Source: a virus (Duplodnaviria > Caudoviricetes). Taken from it: a DNA stretch of 64,000 nt. Positions 5,271-54,122 of this stretch are shown piece by piece. Where the stretch lies: IMG/VR virus record IMGVR_UViG_3300028624_000009, positions 5,329 to 69,328 of that record; one strand, 5' to 3'. The notes under the pieces are model-generated. The model was not told the DNA's origin. It searched no databases and saw nothing but the letters and a program-made list of their open reading frames with translations. The translations under genes were made by a program, and so were the position numbers. The stretch's first letter is position 1; every line of letters starts with the position of its first letter.

Positions 5271-6467
5271 ATGCCTATCACCGAAGCCAGGAAGGGCTAC
5301 TTATCAACCCATTTTTTTTCGGGCGGAATTATAGACTCTGATGGATTGATAGATGCAATACTTGCCGACTTAAATGGTACAGAAGACGTAACGGTTGACG
5401 ATGTGGTGTGGATGTTCCTGTCACTTGGAACCAGATATAGTCCACCAGATATTGGTTTCGAGATCACCGCGAAAGTAACCGCAGTTAAGGACGGATCAGC
5501 AATAGAAGCACTGATGGAATGTGTCCCCGGCCAGGTCTGCGATTTAACTCCGAAAACAGTCATACTTTATGGGGTGTTTCCACGCAGCAGAGACGCAGAA
5601 GCCAAAGAATGGTTGATGCTCCATTTGCCAATTGGTTCAGAAATAACCCTGACACCGATGGGAAATAATTATATCGTGAACAAGAATGGAGAAGTTATAA
5701 ACGATTCCTTGAATAAATATATAGAAAATCTCGGGCAGGTTACTGAGATAACTGGTTACGATACGATGGCTTCCGTGATGGAGATCATCGATGGAGATAC
5801 TATTCAAGTAATCCAGCAATGCGCTCCCGGCCAGCTCTGTGACATAACACCGGTTAGTGTGAGATTGCAGGGAGTGTCGTCGTCTGAAATGAGTTTCCCG
5901 GCAGGACGAGCTGCCAAATCATGGCTTTATGAGCAGATTCCGCCCGGGACTACGGTCAAACTGGCAGTGAAAGGCAAAGATACATACGGCAGATTGATAG
6001 CAGATATATATTATCCAGCCAATAGTACTACTAGCATAAACGACAAAATGATACAGGCCGGGAAGACAGTAGGCTATAATCCAACTGCCGAGTCGATAGA
6101 TTCAAAGGTTGACGTAAAATATGTAGGAGGCGTTGCAAATTCATATCCTGCTGCATGCACTTCAACTGTATCTAAACCATCCGCAGTACTCAGTCTCATA
6201 TCCCCGGTCTGCAATGTGGTGAAAAAGGATGGATCTGAAACATGGTTCGGATATACCGTGAAAAATGTTGGAGACAAACCCTGGAAAGGCTGGATGGGTG
6301 TCGTGCTTACTGATAACAATACTAGGAAAACATATCAGTATACTGGCGACCCGCGAAAATCCAGTACAATAGCCCCAGGCGAAACCAAGACGCTGTTTAC
6401 GAAATTCGTAGTGCCGCAAGAGTTCGGAAATAAGATATCATGGGAGGCTCTTATAAATAGCCTCTAA
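5271..6467 (+). CDS. Thermonuclease (SNase)-family protein: degenerate plus intact SNase domain and an Ig/CARDB-like C-terminus
   Basis: IIDGDTI...VRLQGV..SE...DTYGRLIADIY motifs; duplicated CxPGQxCDxTP insert. Confidence 0.8.
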   Translation: MPITEARKGYLSTHFFSGGIIDSDGLIDAILADLNGTEDVTVDDVVWMFLSLGTRYSPPDIGFEITAKVTAVKDGSAIEALMECVPGQVCDLTPKTVILYGVFPRSRDAEAKEWLMLHLPIGSEITLTPMGNNYIVNKNGEVINDSLNKYIENLGQVTEITGYDTMASVMEIIDGDTIQVIQQCAPGQLCDITPVSVRLQGVSSSEMSFPAGRAAKSWLYEQIPPGTTVKLAVKGKDTYGRLIADIYYPANSTTSINDKMIQAGKTVGYNPTAESIDSKVDVKYVGGVANSYPAACTSTVSKPSAVLSLISPVCNVVKKDGSETWFGYTVKNVGDKPWKGWMGVVLTDNNTRKTYQYTGDPRKSSTIAPGETKTLFTKFVVPQEFGNKISWEALINSL

Positions 6468-31644: not shown

Positions 31645-32124
31645 TTGCCCGTTTTGTGGAAAGGAGGTTGGGGTATGAATTGGAAAGAGCGTGCTATTAG
31701 ACAAATCTTTTTCGAGTGTAAGAGATGTGGGACATGTTGCCAGGAACCGAAAATTGTTGACATATATCCCAGGGATGCGCTTAGAATTGCAAGAAGGTTT
31801 AGGATTTCGATGAGACTTGCGGCTAAACGTCATTTCATGAGACATCCAAATGATGATGAGAGGTTGACGTTGCGGAATGTGGCTCCATGTGAGTTTTATC
31901 AAAATGGATGTCGGATATATCGGAGTAGACCTTTGATTTGTAGGATGTATCCTTATTTGGCCGGGCCGACGATTTATTGTGAGACACCAACGGGCGAATT
32001 GCCGGAAATGGATGACCAGGACGTGATTATTAAGTTGGCAAAGGTGACTAACCTGCGCATACTTGAGCTTGAGGATTATCTGAGGTATATTGGGGCATGG
32101 AAGGATGGGAGGTTCACGTCGTGA
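31645..32124 (+). CDS. YkgJ-family Cys-cluster (Zn/Fe-chelating) protein
   Basis: FECKRCGTCC...PCEF...CRIY.SRPLICRMYP. Confidence 0.9.
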   Translation: MPVLWKGGWGMNWKERAIRQIFFECKRCGTCCQEPKIVDIYPRDALRIARRFRISMRLAAKRHFMRHPNDDERLTLRNVAPCEFYQNGCRIYRSRPLICRMYPYLAGPTIYCETPTGELPEMDDQDVIIKLAKVTNLRILELEDYLRYIGAWKDGRFTS

Positions 32125-32400
32125 TTTCCGAGGTGATTAATGGGGTTCTTGTGTTTGGACCTGATGATATGACAGAGGAAGAGTATCTGGCTTGGAGAAA
32201 GAAGAAGGTTGCCGAGACTGATTTGTATTGGGAGGAGTTGAGGATGAAGTATAGAAATGGTGGCAACGAACGTCGAATAATGAACAAAGTGCGCGACTGG
32301 TTGCGATTTGTGAGAAATCGATTACGGTGGATATGATGTCAACTGATATTTATTTTTCAAAATCGATAACTGTGAAAATTTTTGAAATTTTTCGAAAATA

Positions 32401-32640
32401 ATTCAATTTTCTATTATAGAGAGGAGATAGGATAGATATAGAGTAAAGATAAGGATAAGATAATAGATGAGAGTAAGAGATAGATAAGTAAGATAGGTAG
32501 TTGGATATAGTAGATAGATAGTGTTAAGATAGTGGCTGGTAAGATAGTGATGAGATATATGGTATAGGTTATAGGTATTAGGTTATATAAGTGCGGTTAG
32601 TGGTTTTGTTAGGTAGGTCTAAGTGATCCTGATATTAAGT
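32401..32640 (+). repeat. Low-complexity GATA(G/A)-rich, almost C-free tract
   Basis: Repeated gatag/gataa/ggtat units. Confidence 0.8.
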
Positions 32641-32690
32641 CTGTTTCCAACCTGCAACCTATCTACCAACTAACTACTCCCTCCCCTCAA

Positions 32691-32729
32691 TCCCCTCCGC
32701 CGGAGGGGAAGGGCGCGCTAATGCGCGCC
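32691..32729. other. Two adjacent perfect GC-rich hairpins
   Basis: TCCCCTCC-GCC-GGAGGGGA and GGCGCGC-TAAT-GCGCGCC. Confidence 0.85.
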
Positions 32730-33724
32730 TATTCGTCGCCCTCTCTCTGCTATTGTCTGTCCTTGTCTCTTGCTGTCTCTTGTTTATTATCTTCTGGAAT
32801 CTATCTCTCTTGCTGGTCTTGAAAATCTCTTATTACTACTCTCTGTCTCCTGCTGTCTGCTCCTGTGGCCCAATGCCCAAAAATGTACATCAATGCCTGG
32901 TCTTGTCTAAAGATACCGCCGTGGGGTCATCAATGTACAAAATCGATCACTAGTGATAAGCTAGGTGTCATATGACCTTGATATGGGCGAACTGCTGGAT
33001 ATTGGGTCCGGGCCAGGCCTGGCGGAATGTGGGTCTTCAGCCATGTCCAGATATGTCCATCAGGCTGCACATATAACCCAAGACGGCTAGATATGTACAT
33101 TGGTGAGTCAATAGTTCCGTAGGCGGGTTGAGGCGTTTCTAGGGTTATATTACTGCCAACGCCAAAATGTACATATTCGTACATCAATGCACATCTCCGG
33201 GTCCCAATGCATATCTTCAAGCACCATTGCCAACCTCCCGCCGCCAATGTCCATTTCTGTGCACTGGGGTTCGGCCCCTCCCCTTGTCGCTTTATATCAG
33301 GATCGGTCCTATAATAGTAAATTGAATTAATTTAATTTTATCAATTTTCGTTTCATTTCTTTTATTTTTATTTAATTTCGAACATATCACATATACTCCA
33401 CATATAACCCATATATCGCTATCAGTAGCCACCATTGACCGCATATATCCCATATAATCGATAACAGGCAGCAATATCTCCCCTATATATAGATATACGC
33501 GTGCGTACATGATATATACAGCCGCCGGTTGCCGATTTTCCCGCCTTTCGTCGCCACCCCGCCACATCAAACCGATATCAAGCGACATTATCGCGGAAAT
33601 CGACCGCTCCAACCACCCCTCCCAATGTACAAATATGTACATCAACGTACAAGATATCACCATATCGATCACAGTAGGGCATAGTTGTTCAGCAAGCTTT
33701 ATATCCTCAAGGCCTAAGATAGGT

Positions 33725-34675
33725 ATTGTGCGAAGGCGAATAACCAAACACCGGAGCACAAAACCAAAATCCCAAATAGAGCAGGCAGGCCAAAACCGGC
33801 GATCTCTCCGAATTCCGGGGAAATGAGATCTTCATTGCTGGGCGGTTTGGGGTTAGTCAAAATCAATATCACAATGTATAGGCTCAATGAACTCAAATAG
33901 GCATCAATCGAGGTGATTCAGAGCAATTTCCAGGCAGGGAATACGGAGCAGGCATTTGATGGCAAACCTACTCCCGATTTTCTCAGAAGTCCCGAAAAGC
34001 CAAAAGCAATCAATCCACGTTAATCGATGGTTAGCCGTCCTAATCGCAAATCGGTCTCAATTCCGTAGATTAGGCTTAATATCAGGTTGAAGACTTGATA
34101 AACGGCATTGGCTCCACCTAAAAGCCAGAAGTTCAAAGATCAGGCCAGCCCTTCAGAGTCAGCCGGAGCAATGGATCAGTCCAGAGTGACGAGCCGAGAG
34201 AGGAAAAAATGATCACGGTTTGCTATCCCCTAGCAAATGCCGACGAAAAAGATAACCTCTCGCCTAACCGACTGACCAAACTCTGATACGGCTCAACTGA
34301 TCGATTCCGGGAATTTGACTGGCCCGGATGCGGCGGCTAGTGTAAACCAGAATTAGAGACGCCATCTCACCAAAATTCTGGTTGAACCATAGGGTAGCCG
34401 CCAAAGGCCAAAAATGCCCTTACTTCCGATCTAGCCCATATGCCCAAATAGCCGACAGCGAAAGGGCCTGATATGGGCAACGCACAGACAACGACGATGA
34501 GCCTTGTGTCTAGGGGAGACTCAGGGCTCCGGCAAAATGCAGCAGTGCAGGTTTGATTCCGGTTCGATTCCGGACACTGCTATTGGCGGGATTGCTGAAC
34601 TCCCTTCACAACCCGTCAACAGTGGGCGACACTTTTTCCATTGGCCTCCTAACCTTTGGGTGCGTCCACTGACCC
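33725..34675 (+). ncRNA. Candidate large structured non-coding RNA (boundaries approximate)
   Basis: No credible ORF; many nested helices; TTTATA box at ~33698; tRNA-like element near the 3' end. Confidence 0.55.
34541..34582 (+). ncRNA. tRNA-like minihelix (acceptor stem plus T-arm, no D or anticodon arm)
   Basis: AGCAGTG/CACTGCT 7-bp stem; TCCGG-TTCGATT-CCGGA T-arm; discriminator A. Confidence 0.65.
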
Positions 34676-34741
34676 CTAATTACCCTGATGAGTTAACCGA
34701 GTGTGATTTTCTCCAGGAAAGTAATAAAGGAGTGATACCAA

Positions 34742-35158
34742 ATGAGCAAAATAAGCATACTTAGAAAAAAGGTAGTTGAAACTGTCGAAAAAATAGATGA
34801 TGAGGCCATCTTAACCTCAATGCTTGTATTTGCGAGCACCGCGACTCAGACCCCCATCCAGACACAGCCCAAGACCAAAAAAGCGAGAACCCCCAAACCC
34901 ACCGCCGAAAAGACAAGCAGCAAATTGCTGATCGTCCGCTACGAACACAAGGGCAAAGCAATGATTGCGGTTCAGACCGTAGGCGGCAAGCCTGATGAGG
35001 CCATTCTCACCAAACTCAGGGCCTTCAAAGAGGCCAAGAAGCTCAGATTCTACGTAAACGCACCTCAAAACCCGCTTCCAGGAAACAACCCATTCTGGGC
35101 CGGACCCTATGATGAGGCCATAGTTGAAGCATTTCCCAGTGCGAAGGTTGTGGCCTAA
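34742..35158 (+). CDS. Basic hypothetical protein, first gene of the early-type cluster
   Basis: Strong GGAGTGA site; Lys/Thr/Pro linker. Confidence 0.75.
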   Translation: MSKISILRKKVVETVEKIDDEAILTSMLVFASTATQTPIQTQPKTKKARTPKPTAEKTSSKLLIVRYEHKGKAMIAVQTVGGKPDEAILTKLRAFKEAKKLRFYVNAPQNPLPGNNPFWAGPYDEAIVEAFPSAKVVA

Positions 35159-35283
35159 ATGACCACAACCACCTGCGACGGAATCACCTATTACGAAGAA
35201 TCGGGAGAGCTGATAGGCATCTCCGTGGAGGCAGAGGCATGAAGCAGATTGGTGCACGCAAAGCGTGTTAAGAACCGAGGCGA

Positions 35284-38200
35284 TTGCTGATGAAAGTAAA
35301 AGACATCCCAGGAGATGCGATGTTCATCTCGGACAGCCAAGACGTATCCCAAATTCTGGCCGATTTTGGAATTGTTGATGACGATATCGGAGCCATCTTT
35401 ATAACCCGAGACGGCACAATTTACGGAATTTCCGGCAATATCCCATACCTTGAAAAGCAAGTCTTTAGGCTTGGCCAGGACATAAATTATGCGGCGGATG
35501 ATTGAAATGTTAAGCACAGATGTAAAGGCTAATTACCTAAAGAATGGTGGTAATCGTTGCATATACTGCGATTCTGAAGAAATTTGGTCGGAGCATATAC
35601 GCCATGATGACGAGCTGTGGACTCTCACTCACTGCGAGCGTTGTGAAAAACTTTGGAAAGACCTTTATAAATTATCAGGAGTTGAAGAATACCATGCCGA
35701 CGAAGAAGAATAAACCCCACTATATCGCCATGAGTGGGTCTCATGGATGTCTCCCGGATCATCTGGCGTGCTTCAAAAAATATTCCGAAGCAGTCCGGGA
35801 TCTGATAGACGTTTTTCAATTACCCCGTGATGGGGTAAAAGCCACGGAATTGCGGAAATGCGGTTATGTTGAGCTGGATGAAGCGGACTGGCCGGGGAGA
35901 AATGAACATCGTTATGGGGCCGAGTACGCTGAAATTCAAAAGTGTAATTGCGATCATCCAAAGATTCATGATGAGGATTTTCAGGAGGGTTGATAATGCA
36001 AAAGAGATTGTGGCACTTCAGGATGCCAGGAATGGGCCTTTACTGTAATGATCTTGTATTTGATAAGCCAGTCTCAGAAAGACAAGCAAGAGCAGAATTA
36101 AGATTGAGAGACGGATACAAGCGACTTCCAAACGACACAGAATTTTGGTGAGGTCAAGGAGGTGGTGAGAGATGACAACCTGGGTTGAAATAAGTTCAGT
36201 TGTTGATGGAATGGTGATGGTAGAAGAGATCGATGAAGAGGTCGAGGAGATGGCCTGAGATGACCTGCAAACACCTAGATACTCTACCATGCGGGGATAG
36301 CCAGAGCATGAGCAGATGCCATCTCCATCCGGAGCTAGGCAGGTTCCAGACCTGGAGTAATTGCCAGGTCGACCGGGGTGGATGCGATGATTACGAGGAG
36401 GTGGCCTGAGATGGTCAGATTGTCTGGTATATGGTGGTTGGAATGGGAAGGATTTTGATTGAAAATGGCAAAATAACTCCAGCCTGCAAGGCTTTCAAAC
36501 CTAAAGGCGACGGCATAACAACTTGTGTTTGTTGTGGCAGGAAACTGACTCATCCCGAATCCGTTAAAGATGGGATGGGTCCGATTTGCTCTGGAAAAGC
36601 ACGTAGATATGGAGGTTATCATGAAACAAATTGTAAAGATTGATGAAGTCCTGGTTGACCAGATCATAAATGAGATGATCAGTATATTGGATAGTGATTA
36701 TTGCTCAGTAAATCGCAATAAAGTTGTATCTGCTGAACTGAGAATAACATCGGAATATCTTTCGCTGATACTGAACCTAACTGACGGTCTGATTGTAACA
36801 GTTGAAGAGATAACATATGAGCCAGATACATGGGATATTACAAGCTGGGCAGAGCCGGTTTTGACTAAGTTTGTTGAAGCATCAATCGACAACATAAAGG
36901 AGGAACAACGATATGAAAAATACTGAAACAATCGAAGAGACCAACGCACAGCCAACAACCAAAATCGTCTACAGGGATATCAAAAATCCAGGAACTGCCG
37001 CCGTATTAAGCAAAGGAACCGTGCCGTACCTGGAGAAGATTGCCGATTATCTAGGAATTTTAGGAGAATAAAATGACAAATATGTTAATAAGGTTTATAG
37101 GGTTCCTTATTGCCCTTATTGGTGCAACTGGTACACTCATTGGGGCGATTGGTGTTTTCGCAAGTGAAAATGGCCTAGAGGTACTATTCGCTGGCCTGAT
37201 ACTTGTAGTATCATTAATAAACCTGGGAATAGGATTAATCGCAGCAAAGAATTAGAGGAGATAAATATGGGCGAACTACCAATTATAGTAGAAGGAAATA
37301 TTGATGACTCTGATGAAGAATTGATTGCACAAGTTAACACATTGTTAAGTGATATTCTAGGAGAACCTGGAAGTCTAACAGTTGGCCGAATAACCAGAGT
37401 GACTGAAGAAATTCAAGATGGTGTTAAGGAACCTGGCTTTGTATGCGTATGGATTGATTGAAATAAGAATCAGGTGATAAAAAATGCCATACTTCGTAAA
37501 TTGCCAACATCAGTTCTATTCTGGTAGATATATAGTGGAAATAGCATATCCAGGAATCGATTACGCCGGTTCGGATATGCTCGCCACGGATTATCCAGGT
37601 GAAGGAGAATACGACGACCCAAGAGAAGCCTTGGACGCAGCGATCAAGGTCAGAGAGGCATTGCAGGCCGATCACCCCGATGAGGAAATAGGGATTGCGT
37701 TTGGCCATTTTGACATGGTAGAGGGCGAACCTCAAGATATTGATGAACTGAGAAAGGATATCGAGAAGCACTACGAATCATTGCCAAAATGTGATCACTG
37801 TGGCAAACCGAGAGATGACAAAGAGTTTTTCGTAATCTACGGAGATCCTGATTACGGAAAATTCTGTTCGGAATCTTGCGCAGAAGAAGCATTTATTGAG
37901 AATGAAGAACAAACGGAGGAATGAAACAATAGCCGCTAAGGTATTATCCCGACGAAAACTCAAAAAACTTCGAAAACTGGGCAATTGAGTTGGGATATGA
38001 TATTGATTCAAGAAGAGCTGAGACAATATATCACAATGTGAAAGCTGTGTCTTTGAACCTGAAAAATTTCTTGGGAAAAGAAGCTTACGAAACCTTGCTG
38101 AGGGAACCGGAGAGAATGTAAATGGTGATCGAAAAAGCGATACAACAACGCGATAAATGAGGTGGCGGCCATGGAAAAAGAGGCAAAATTGCGTATAGTT

Positions 38201-53994: not shown

Positions 53995-54122
53995 ACCGAA
54001 TATGTAAGATAGATTAATATAAAAACAAATGCGGAATAAAGTAGTACAATGTTCAATCGGATAAATTTTATTAAATTAGCGTGTTCAACAAGTACATATA
54101 TCAGTAACAAAGTAGTACAATC

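Follow-up and report, generated by a model that had tools for sequence, protein, structure and literature searches.

In a 64,000-nucleotide (nt) stretch of viral DNA, positions 5,329 to 69,328 of the IMG/VR record IMGVR_UViG_3300028624_000009 (Caudoviricetes) and here referred to as the window, we found that a 42-nt tRNA-like minihelix at positions 34541 to 34582 of the plus strand borders the 3′ edge of an abundant, structured noncoding RNA of approximately 806 nt. On balance, we favor the view that this minihelix is a viral t-element at which RNase P forms the 3′ end of the large RNA. An earlier reading of the DNA, made from its letters without database searches (the sequence-only reading), had described the element as AGCAGTG, a linker, TCCGG, TTCGATT, CCGGA, CACTGCT, and A, and this structure proved to be exact letter by letter. 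Its parts are listed below, where carriers are the related sequences that contain the minihelix.

34541-34547, plus strand: 5′ strand of the acceptor stem (AGCAGTG), read from the sequence and invariant in 8/8 aligned carriers; the predicted RNase P cut lies between 34540 and 34541
34548-34557, plus strand: 10-nt linker CAGGTTTGAT, which stands in for the D arm, the anticodon arm, and the variable region
34558-34574, plus strand: T-arm, composed of TCCGG (34558-34562), TTCGATT (34563-34569), and CCGGA (34570-34574), invariant in 8/8 carriers
34575-34581 and 34582, plus strand: 3′ strand of the acceptor stem (CACTGCT) and discriminator A, invariant in 8/8 carriers; the predicted tRNase Z cut lies after 34582

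Fold and tRNA hallmarks of the minihelix

The minihelix consists of a 7-bp acceptor stem and a 5-bp T-stem, in which all 12 pairs are Watson-Crick pairs. The 3′ strand of the T-stem continues directly into that of the acceptor stem, as it does in a tRNA, and the two stems stack. The T-arm agrees with the tRNA consensus (G53-C61 and T54-T55-C56-G57-A58), and no CCA is encoded after the discriminator A34582. Folding of the 42-mer returned the minihelix as the minimum-energy structure (−15.8 kcal/mol; z of −2.70; 1 of 200 shuffled sequences was equally good), and the fold was retained within a 145-nt context (−55.1 kcal/mol; z of −4.49; 0 of 200 shuffles). When both strands of the window were scanned for the architecture (7 bp)-(0-30 nt)-(5 bp)-TTCRANN-(5)-(7), a single element was obtained, compared with none in 200 first-order Markov sequences of equal length. 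T-arms alone occurred 0.47 times per Markov sequence, which leads to an expectation of approximately 0.001 top-half architectures per 64 kb. This chance figure is by itself indecisive over many windows, and it is conservation and position that add weight. The three other T-arm-like matches in the window all had AT-rich stems and were devoid of an acceptor stem.

A search with ARAGORN revealed 0 tRNA or tmRNA genes in the window, and Rfam 15 gave 0 matches there at gathering thresholds. When the Rfam threshold was relaxed to an E value of ≤10 over positions 32000 to 35500, the sole match was to SscA; it was rejected as spurious because it lies in an AT-rich stretch and its score of 19.5 bits is far below the cutoff of 60. 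The tRNA model RF00005 had no match at an E value of ≤10 in the whole virus record and none at an E value of ≤1 in four related records, and this virus group therefore appears to do without ordinary tRNA genes (5/5 records). A canonical tRNA gene was rejected since there is no cloverleaf, with just 10 nt between the 5′ strand of the acceptor stem and the T-stem. The same short distance to the T-arm led us to reject a split, permuted, or intron-bearing tRNA; the ARAGORN search that the sequence-only reading had proposed as a check on this point found no tRNA, and RF00005 agrees. We also rejected the tRNA-like domain of a one- or two-piece tmRNA, for which neither ARAGORN nor Rfam gave anything, and membership in the mascRNA/menRNA family, which had no Rfam match at gathering thresholds nor, around the minihelix, at an E value of ≤10. 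What the element shares with t-elements is a noncanonical tRNA-like fold in which the acceptor stem and the T-arm are preserved.

Conservation of the minihelix in related viruses

Ten related sequences, namely, the window, L002, L003, L004, L008, L009, L010, L012, L014, and L015, reach the site, and nine of them contain the minihelix, which is missing from L008. Among viral contigs, four scans by DNA pattern turned up no sequences other than L002, L003, L004, and L008, and a protein-based metagenome scan yielded six close relatives with 92 to 99% identity, with L011 and L013 being dropped because they stop short of the minihelix. L009 (SACF01000125.1; 2,375 bases), deposited as part of an alphaproteobacterial metagenome-assembled genome, contains the minihelix, preceded by the 3′ portion of the large RNA and followed by a hairpin (hairpin A); it is a fragment of this archaeal-type virus and a binning contaminant. 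As L009 repeats L003 over the stretch seen, it was left out of the alignments, which contained eight carriers in five distinct rows. In these alignments, 0 of the 32 columns of the stems, loop, and discriminator varied, compared with 5 of the 10 linker columns (Fisher P value of 3 × 10−4). The linker occurred in four versions among the eight carriers, with CAGG and the last T conserved. The stems are thus conserved in related viruses.

The relative that lacks the minihelix, L008, retains the large RNA and the downstream gene (76% identity). At the place where the carriers have the minihelix, 11 nt after the helix that closes the large RNA, L008 has a run of five T residues (T5), followed by two hairpins unrelated to those found downstream of the minihelix (hairpins A and B) and then by the shared motif CCCCTAATTAC. 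A run of T residues is the usual archaeal termination signal. Judged from its sequence, L008 looks like a natural swap between a terminator and the minihelix.

A PolB-based scan provided four further records (PolB identity of 62 to 81%), of which 0/4 matched a 966-nt query by BLAST. The T-arm pattern was present in 2 of 5 records, in both cases within coding sequence and without the stems. As the distant relatives showed neither a match to the large RNA nor a stemmed T-arm, the minihelix is confined to one sub-lineage. In the phage collection, there was no match to positions 33800 to 34760, and an 88-nt query gave short matches only, with E values of at least 0.2.

Separately, we noted an unannotated tRNA-like element in Synechococcus phage S-CRM01 (HQ615693.1, approximately positions 130273 to 130329; L026, positions 281 to 337). 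It has a 7-bp acceptor stem (GGAAGTG/CACTTCC) and a T-arm (TCAGG-TTCGATT-CCTGA), with 28 nt between them, and lies approximately 190 bases upstream of an annotated tRNA-Gly gene; ARAGORN made no call for this element.

The large RNA and its transcript cover

The minihelix starts 8 nt past the closing helix of the large RNA, the features of which are as follows.

33698-33704, plus strand: TATA-like promoter motif TTTATAT, starting 37 nt before the RNA 5′ end at 33735
33735-34540, plus strand: structured noncoding RNA of approximately 806 nt, seen in RNA contigs and by RNAalifold covariation
33751-33757 (CCGGAGC) with 34526-34532 (GCTCCGG), plus strand: closing helix of the large RNA, from RNAalifold
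34533-34540, plus strand: 8-nt single-stranded tail of the large RNA, between the closing helix and the minihelix

RNAalifold analysis of seven sequences of the large RNA yielded 222 pairs, 32 of which had compensatory changes. There is no credible open reading frame (ORF) across 33735 to approximately 34540, and in the Rfam searches described above (gathering thresholds, and an E value of ≤10 over 32000 to 35500), the large RNA had no match. It represents a major unexplained viral product and may outweigh the minihelix in importance.

For positions 33700 to 34800, 24 runs were listed, 20 of which contained 50% or more of the sampled words; 11 of those 20 are on record as RNA. The word shares of the RNA runs ranged from 0.68 to 0.72, near 806/1101 = 0.73. 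These shares fit cover of the large RNA alone, which for runs other than X1, X6, and X10 we infer from the shares themselves. Contigs were mapped for these three RNA runs and for one DNA-like run (X15), with the following results.

X1, RNA: contig 33735-34543, depth of 49, 0 differences
X6, RNA: contig 33735-34518, depth of 70, adapter letters directly before 33735
X10, RNA: contig 33737-34488, depth of 41, adapter letters directly after 34488
X15, DNA-like: contigs 33776-34585 and 34556-34824, which cross the minihelix; depth not compared

In all three mapped RNA runs, the flank at 33400 to 33734 was at depth 0, which excludes DNA carry-over as the source of the large-RNA contigs. The downstream gene reached a depth of just 2.2 to 2.6 in the same runs, making the large RNA approximately 20 times more abundant, and the large RNA assembled at depths of 41 to 70 from metatranscriptome runs of only approximately 50 million letters. 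Its 5′ end lies at 33735, where the contigs of X1 and X6 start and where X6 has its adapter junction. At the other end, no RNA contig of the three runs entered the T-arm or bridged 34540/34541 by at least 31 nt. Positions 34544 to 34735 were uncovered, which is no proof of absence, as such libraries would not hold a 42-nt RNA. The assembled RNA stops at the 5′ edge of the minihelix or up to 52 nt before it, and we regard this as a hint and not as a mapping of the end. A circular RNA formed by bulge-helix-bulge splicing was rejected, since the RNA runs contained no back-joint and nothing speaks for a circle.

The region downstream of the minihelix bears on how the large RNA may end and contains the following features.

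34583-34619, plus strand: hairpin A (34583-34590 with 34612-34619), from the minimum-energy fold, directly after the discriminator
34620-34671, plus strand: hairpin B (34620-34628 with 34663-34671), the loop of which holds a T5 run at 34633-34637
34742-35158, plus strand: first downstream gene, 138 amino acids, no family match, with AAGGAG at 34727-34732

There is no T-run between the large RNA and the minihelix, and the T5 run in the loop of hairpin B (34633 to 34637) is the first one after the large RNA. In all six full-length carriers, the first run of at least five T residues after the closing helix lies 98 to 100 nt downstream, in the hairpin B loop, and a 3′ end near 34540 therefore needs processing. 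It should be added that no YTTATAT motif occurs on the plus strand between 33698 and the minihelix.

Proposed processing at the minihelix

We propose that a primary transcript would arise from the promoter at approximately 33698, start at 33735, and run through the large RNA into the minihelix, which would form its 3′ extension. Host RNase P would recognize the 12-bp stack of acceptor stem and T-arm together with the T-loop and cut between 34540 and 34541, and this cut would provide the large RNA with a 3′ end without a terminator. Host tRNase Z would then probably cut after A34582 and free the 42-nt minihelix, a potential substrate for CCA addition, while any read-through RNA past 34582 would begin with hairpin A. 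With respect to the enzyme, Yuan and Altman reportedly found in 1995 that, for human RNase P, a bulge must follow the 5′ strand of the acceptor stem. The sequence-only reading had also suggested a processing signal that cuts the large RNA from the downstream mRNA. The position of the minihelix at the 3′ edge of an abundant RNA, the stops of the RNA contigs, and the T5 run of L008 argue for this suggestion, whereas the cleavage itself is a prediction. The other role suggested there, that of a decoy for tRNA-targeting nucleases, was not upheld: no evidence supported it, and the minihelix has no anticodon loop, the usual target of such enzymes.

Several observations weigh against the proposed t-element. 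The three RNA contigs end at different places (34543, 34518, and 34488); the longest extends 3 nt past the predicted cut, into the 5′ strand of the acceptor stem, and the stop at 34488 in X10 is an adapter junction. Moreover, these are contigs only, and contigs cannot fix RNA ends. Because all 12/12 pairs of the minihelix are invariant, covariation lends the fold itself no support. The 110 nt downstream of the minihelix are also nearly invariant, and the conservation may be due in part to a block that is young or that recombines. A signal that is read by its shape should tolerate compensated changes, and full invariance hints at an added constraint. In hairpins A and B, one pair each is changed on both sides, and hairpin A has an additional one-sided change (five distinct rows), but this covariation is not significant, as it was reached by 88 of 500 shuffles. 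Finally, L003 and L012 (2/7 sequences) have a T5 run inside the large RNA, approximately 555 nt upstream of where the closing helix ends, and T5 alone is therefore no absolute terminator here.

Alternative explanations

The constraint on individual bases could point to a product that acts in trans. According to this explanation, which we consider unlikely, the excised top-half tRNA of 42 to 45 nt would itself be the product and would serve as a mimic or sponge of the CCA-adding enzyme, an aminoacyl-tRNA synthetase, an initiation or elongation factor, a T-loop modifier, or an acceptor-end defense enzyme; such a role can coexist with one in processing. Both the linker and the large RNA vary, yet the 32 structural bases are identical in 8/8 carriers, and this exceeds what recognition of a shape needs. 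On the other hand, no small RNA was seen (in libraries that would not hold one), relatives of the L008 type do without the minihelix, and no tRNA-related enzyme was present among 25 of the 28 families found in 68 scanned ORFs. Without an anticodon loop, the minihelix also cannot decoy anticodon nucleases. The only other point in favor of the trans role is the A1-U72 pair together with A73, which marks the acceptor end of initiator tRNAs in archaea and eukaryotes. In a combined version, about which we are even more doubtful, one transcript would yield two products in the manner of MALAT1/mascRNA: the RNA of approximately 806 nt and a stable, CCA-tailed, 45-nt half tRNA that would copy the acceptor end of the archaeal initiator (A1-U72, G2-C71, C3-G70, and A73) and act on translation initiation, tRNA maturation, or acceptor-end-directed defense. 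Such a pair of products would explain why the helix and loop bases are frozen whereas the linker drifts.

We give little credence to the possibility that the minihelix is a decaying viral tRNA gene, now without function, from which the D and anticodon arms were deleted. The element is clearly derived from a tRNA or copies one, it is limited to one sub-lineage of the virus group, and tRNA models find no tRNA gene in 5/5 related records, all of which such decay could accommodate. However, decay is expected to be even, yet the changes spare the structural columns (0/32) and fall into the linker (5/10), and the minihelix sits exactly at the 3′ edge of an abundant RNA, where the RNA cover stops.

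It appears improbable that the minihelix is a structural module. In the large RNA, such a module would make tertiary contacts or protect the 3′ end as a cap; alternatively, it would belong, with hairpins A and B, to the leader of the downstream mRNA. The minihelix and the two hairpins do fold as three adjacent helices (z of −4.49), and each hairpin has one compensated pair. Nevertheless, none of the RNA contigs of the three runs includes the minihelix despite the depth of 41 to 70 over the large RNA, and L008 has the large RNA without the minihelix. We rejected as highly implausible an integration role in which the minihelix would be an attachment site copied from the 3′ end of a host tRNA gene: although archaeal integrating elements often target tRNA gene 3′ ends, the complete genome has direct terminal repeats and encodes no tyrosine integrase (PF00589; 0 matches at an E value of ≤1), a 21-mer from the T-arm and the acceptor 3′ strand has no cellular copy, its only hit among 185,579 species genomes being one contig that is the virus itself, mis-binned, and the acceptor 5′ strand that is present here would be superfluous to an att core.

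Relation to known t-elements

The mechanism proposed for the putative viral t-element is of a known kind. For the haloarchaeon Haloferax volcanii, two reports describe a tRNA-like element upstream of the 5S rRNA that is cut by tRNase Z, as well as CRISPR RNAs (crRNAs) that are flanked by t-elements and that RNase P and tRNase Z excise precisely in vivo (PMC4326828, PMC4946936). The viral minihelix resembles these elements in its probable archaeal setting and in being a tRNA-like fold beside another RNA, and the co-transcription and the cuts by RNase P on the 5′ side and tRNase Z on the 3′ side are predicted for it. The Haloferax elements belong to a cell, and the natural one sets a 5′ end, that of the 5S rRNA; in contrast, the minihelix is viral, lies 3′ of a large noncoding RNA, and is reduced to an acceptor stem, a T-arm, and a 10-nt linker.

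Formation of 3′ ends is the role of the t-elements described in a study on Arabidopsis mitochondria, where RNase P acts at downstream t-elements to form the 3′ ends of the ccmC and nad6 mRNAs, and where excised plant mitochondrial t-elements carry non-encoded C/A (PMC1920247). According to the same study, these elements also have a noncanonical tRNA-like fold, with a GGTTCRANYCC T-arm (PMC1920247), but they are organellar, flank mRNAs, and mostly adopt fuller, cloverleaf-like folds. The closest parallel for the type of RNA is provided by MALAT1-mascRNA and NEAT1-menRNA, in which RNase P is reported to form the 3′ end of an abundant long noncoding RNA by cutting just before a tRNA-like element (PMC8457004). 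The comparison with mascRNA made by the sequence-only reading holds for this mechanism but not for the structure: the vertebrate elements form cloverleaves and act in eukaryotic nuclei, and in the absence of an Rfam match here they constitute a parallel and not a relative. Synthetic acceptor/T-arm minihelices, which serve as model substrates of RNase P, the CCA-adding enzyme, and synthetases, share the 12-bp stack and the T-loop (PMC4033280). Those minihelices are laboratory constructs, whereas the viral one is a natural, conserved genomic element.

Our literature searches revealed no tRNA-like processing or minihelix element described for archaeal viruses and no natural element reduced to a bare acceptor/T-arm minihelix; the one paper among the results that did name archaeal viruses was unrelated (PMC12109556). 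Processing signals that resemble tRNAs have been described in plant mitochondria, in a haloarchaeon, and for long noncoding RNAs of vertebrates. As far as our searches show, three features are new here: the occurrence in a virus and in an archaeal context, a structure trimmed to the minihelix alone, and the association with a large, abundant noncoding RNA. The minihelix is linked to an RNA that reaches high abundance in community transcriptomes, and L008 with its T-run offers a natural control without the element, so the idea is directly testable. If it is true, archaeal viruses would borrow host tRNA maturation to shape their noncoding RNAs, and the minihelix would represent a compact, portable 3′-end-forming cassette for methanogen genetics.

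Virus and host setting

The source virus record is complete, with 69,328 bp and direct terminal repeats. The virus encodes the archaeal chromatin protein MC1 (PF05854; E value of 2 × 10−19) and a family-B DNA polymerase; Prim-Pol, PEGA, and DUF1699 are among its other protein families. The YTTATAT motif found ahead of the large RNA also occurs on the minus strand at 54023, 56388, and 59207, each time 29 to 36 nt upstream of a gene's start codon. This spacing agrees with archaeal TATA boxes and with transcripts that mostly lack a leader. Based on the MC1 gene and the spacing of the TATA-like motif, the host is taken to be an archaeon, probably an MC1-bearing one, and the archaeal host that the sequence-only reading had assumed is thereby supported.

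Upstream of the large RNA, positions 32340 to 33700 are poor in ORFs. This stretch comprises a purine-rich block of GATA/GATAAG repeats at approximately 32420 to 32560, a pyrimidine-rich CTGTCTC block at approximately 32740 to 32860, and many copies of (A)ATGTACA up to approximately 33660. Judging by these repeats, it is a candidate replication origin or a candidate set of protein-binding iterons.
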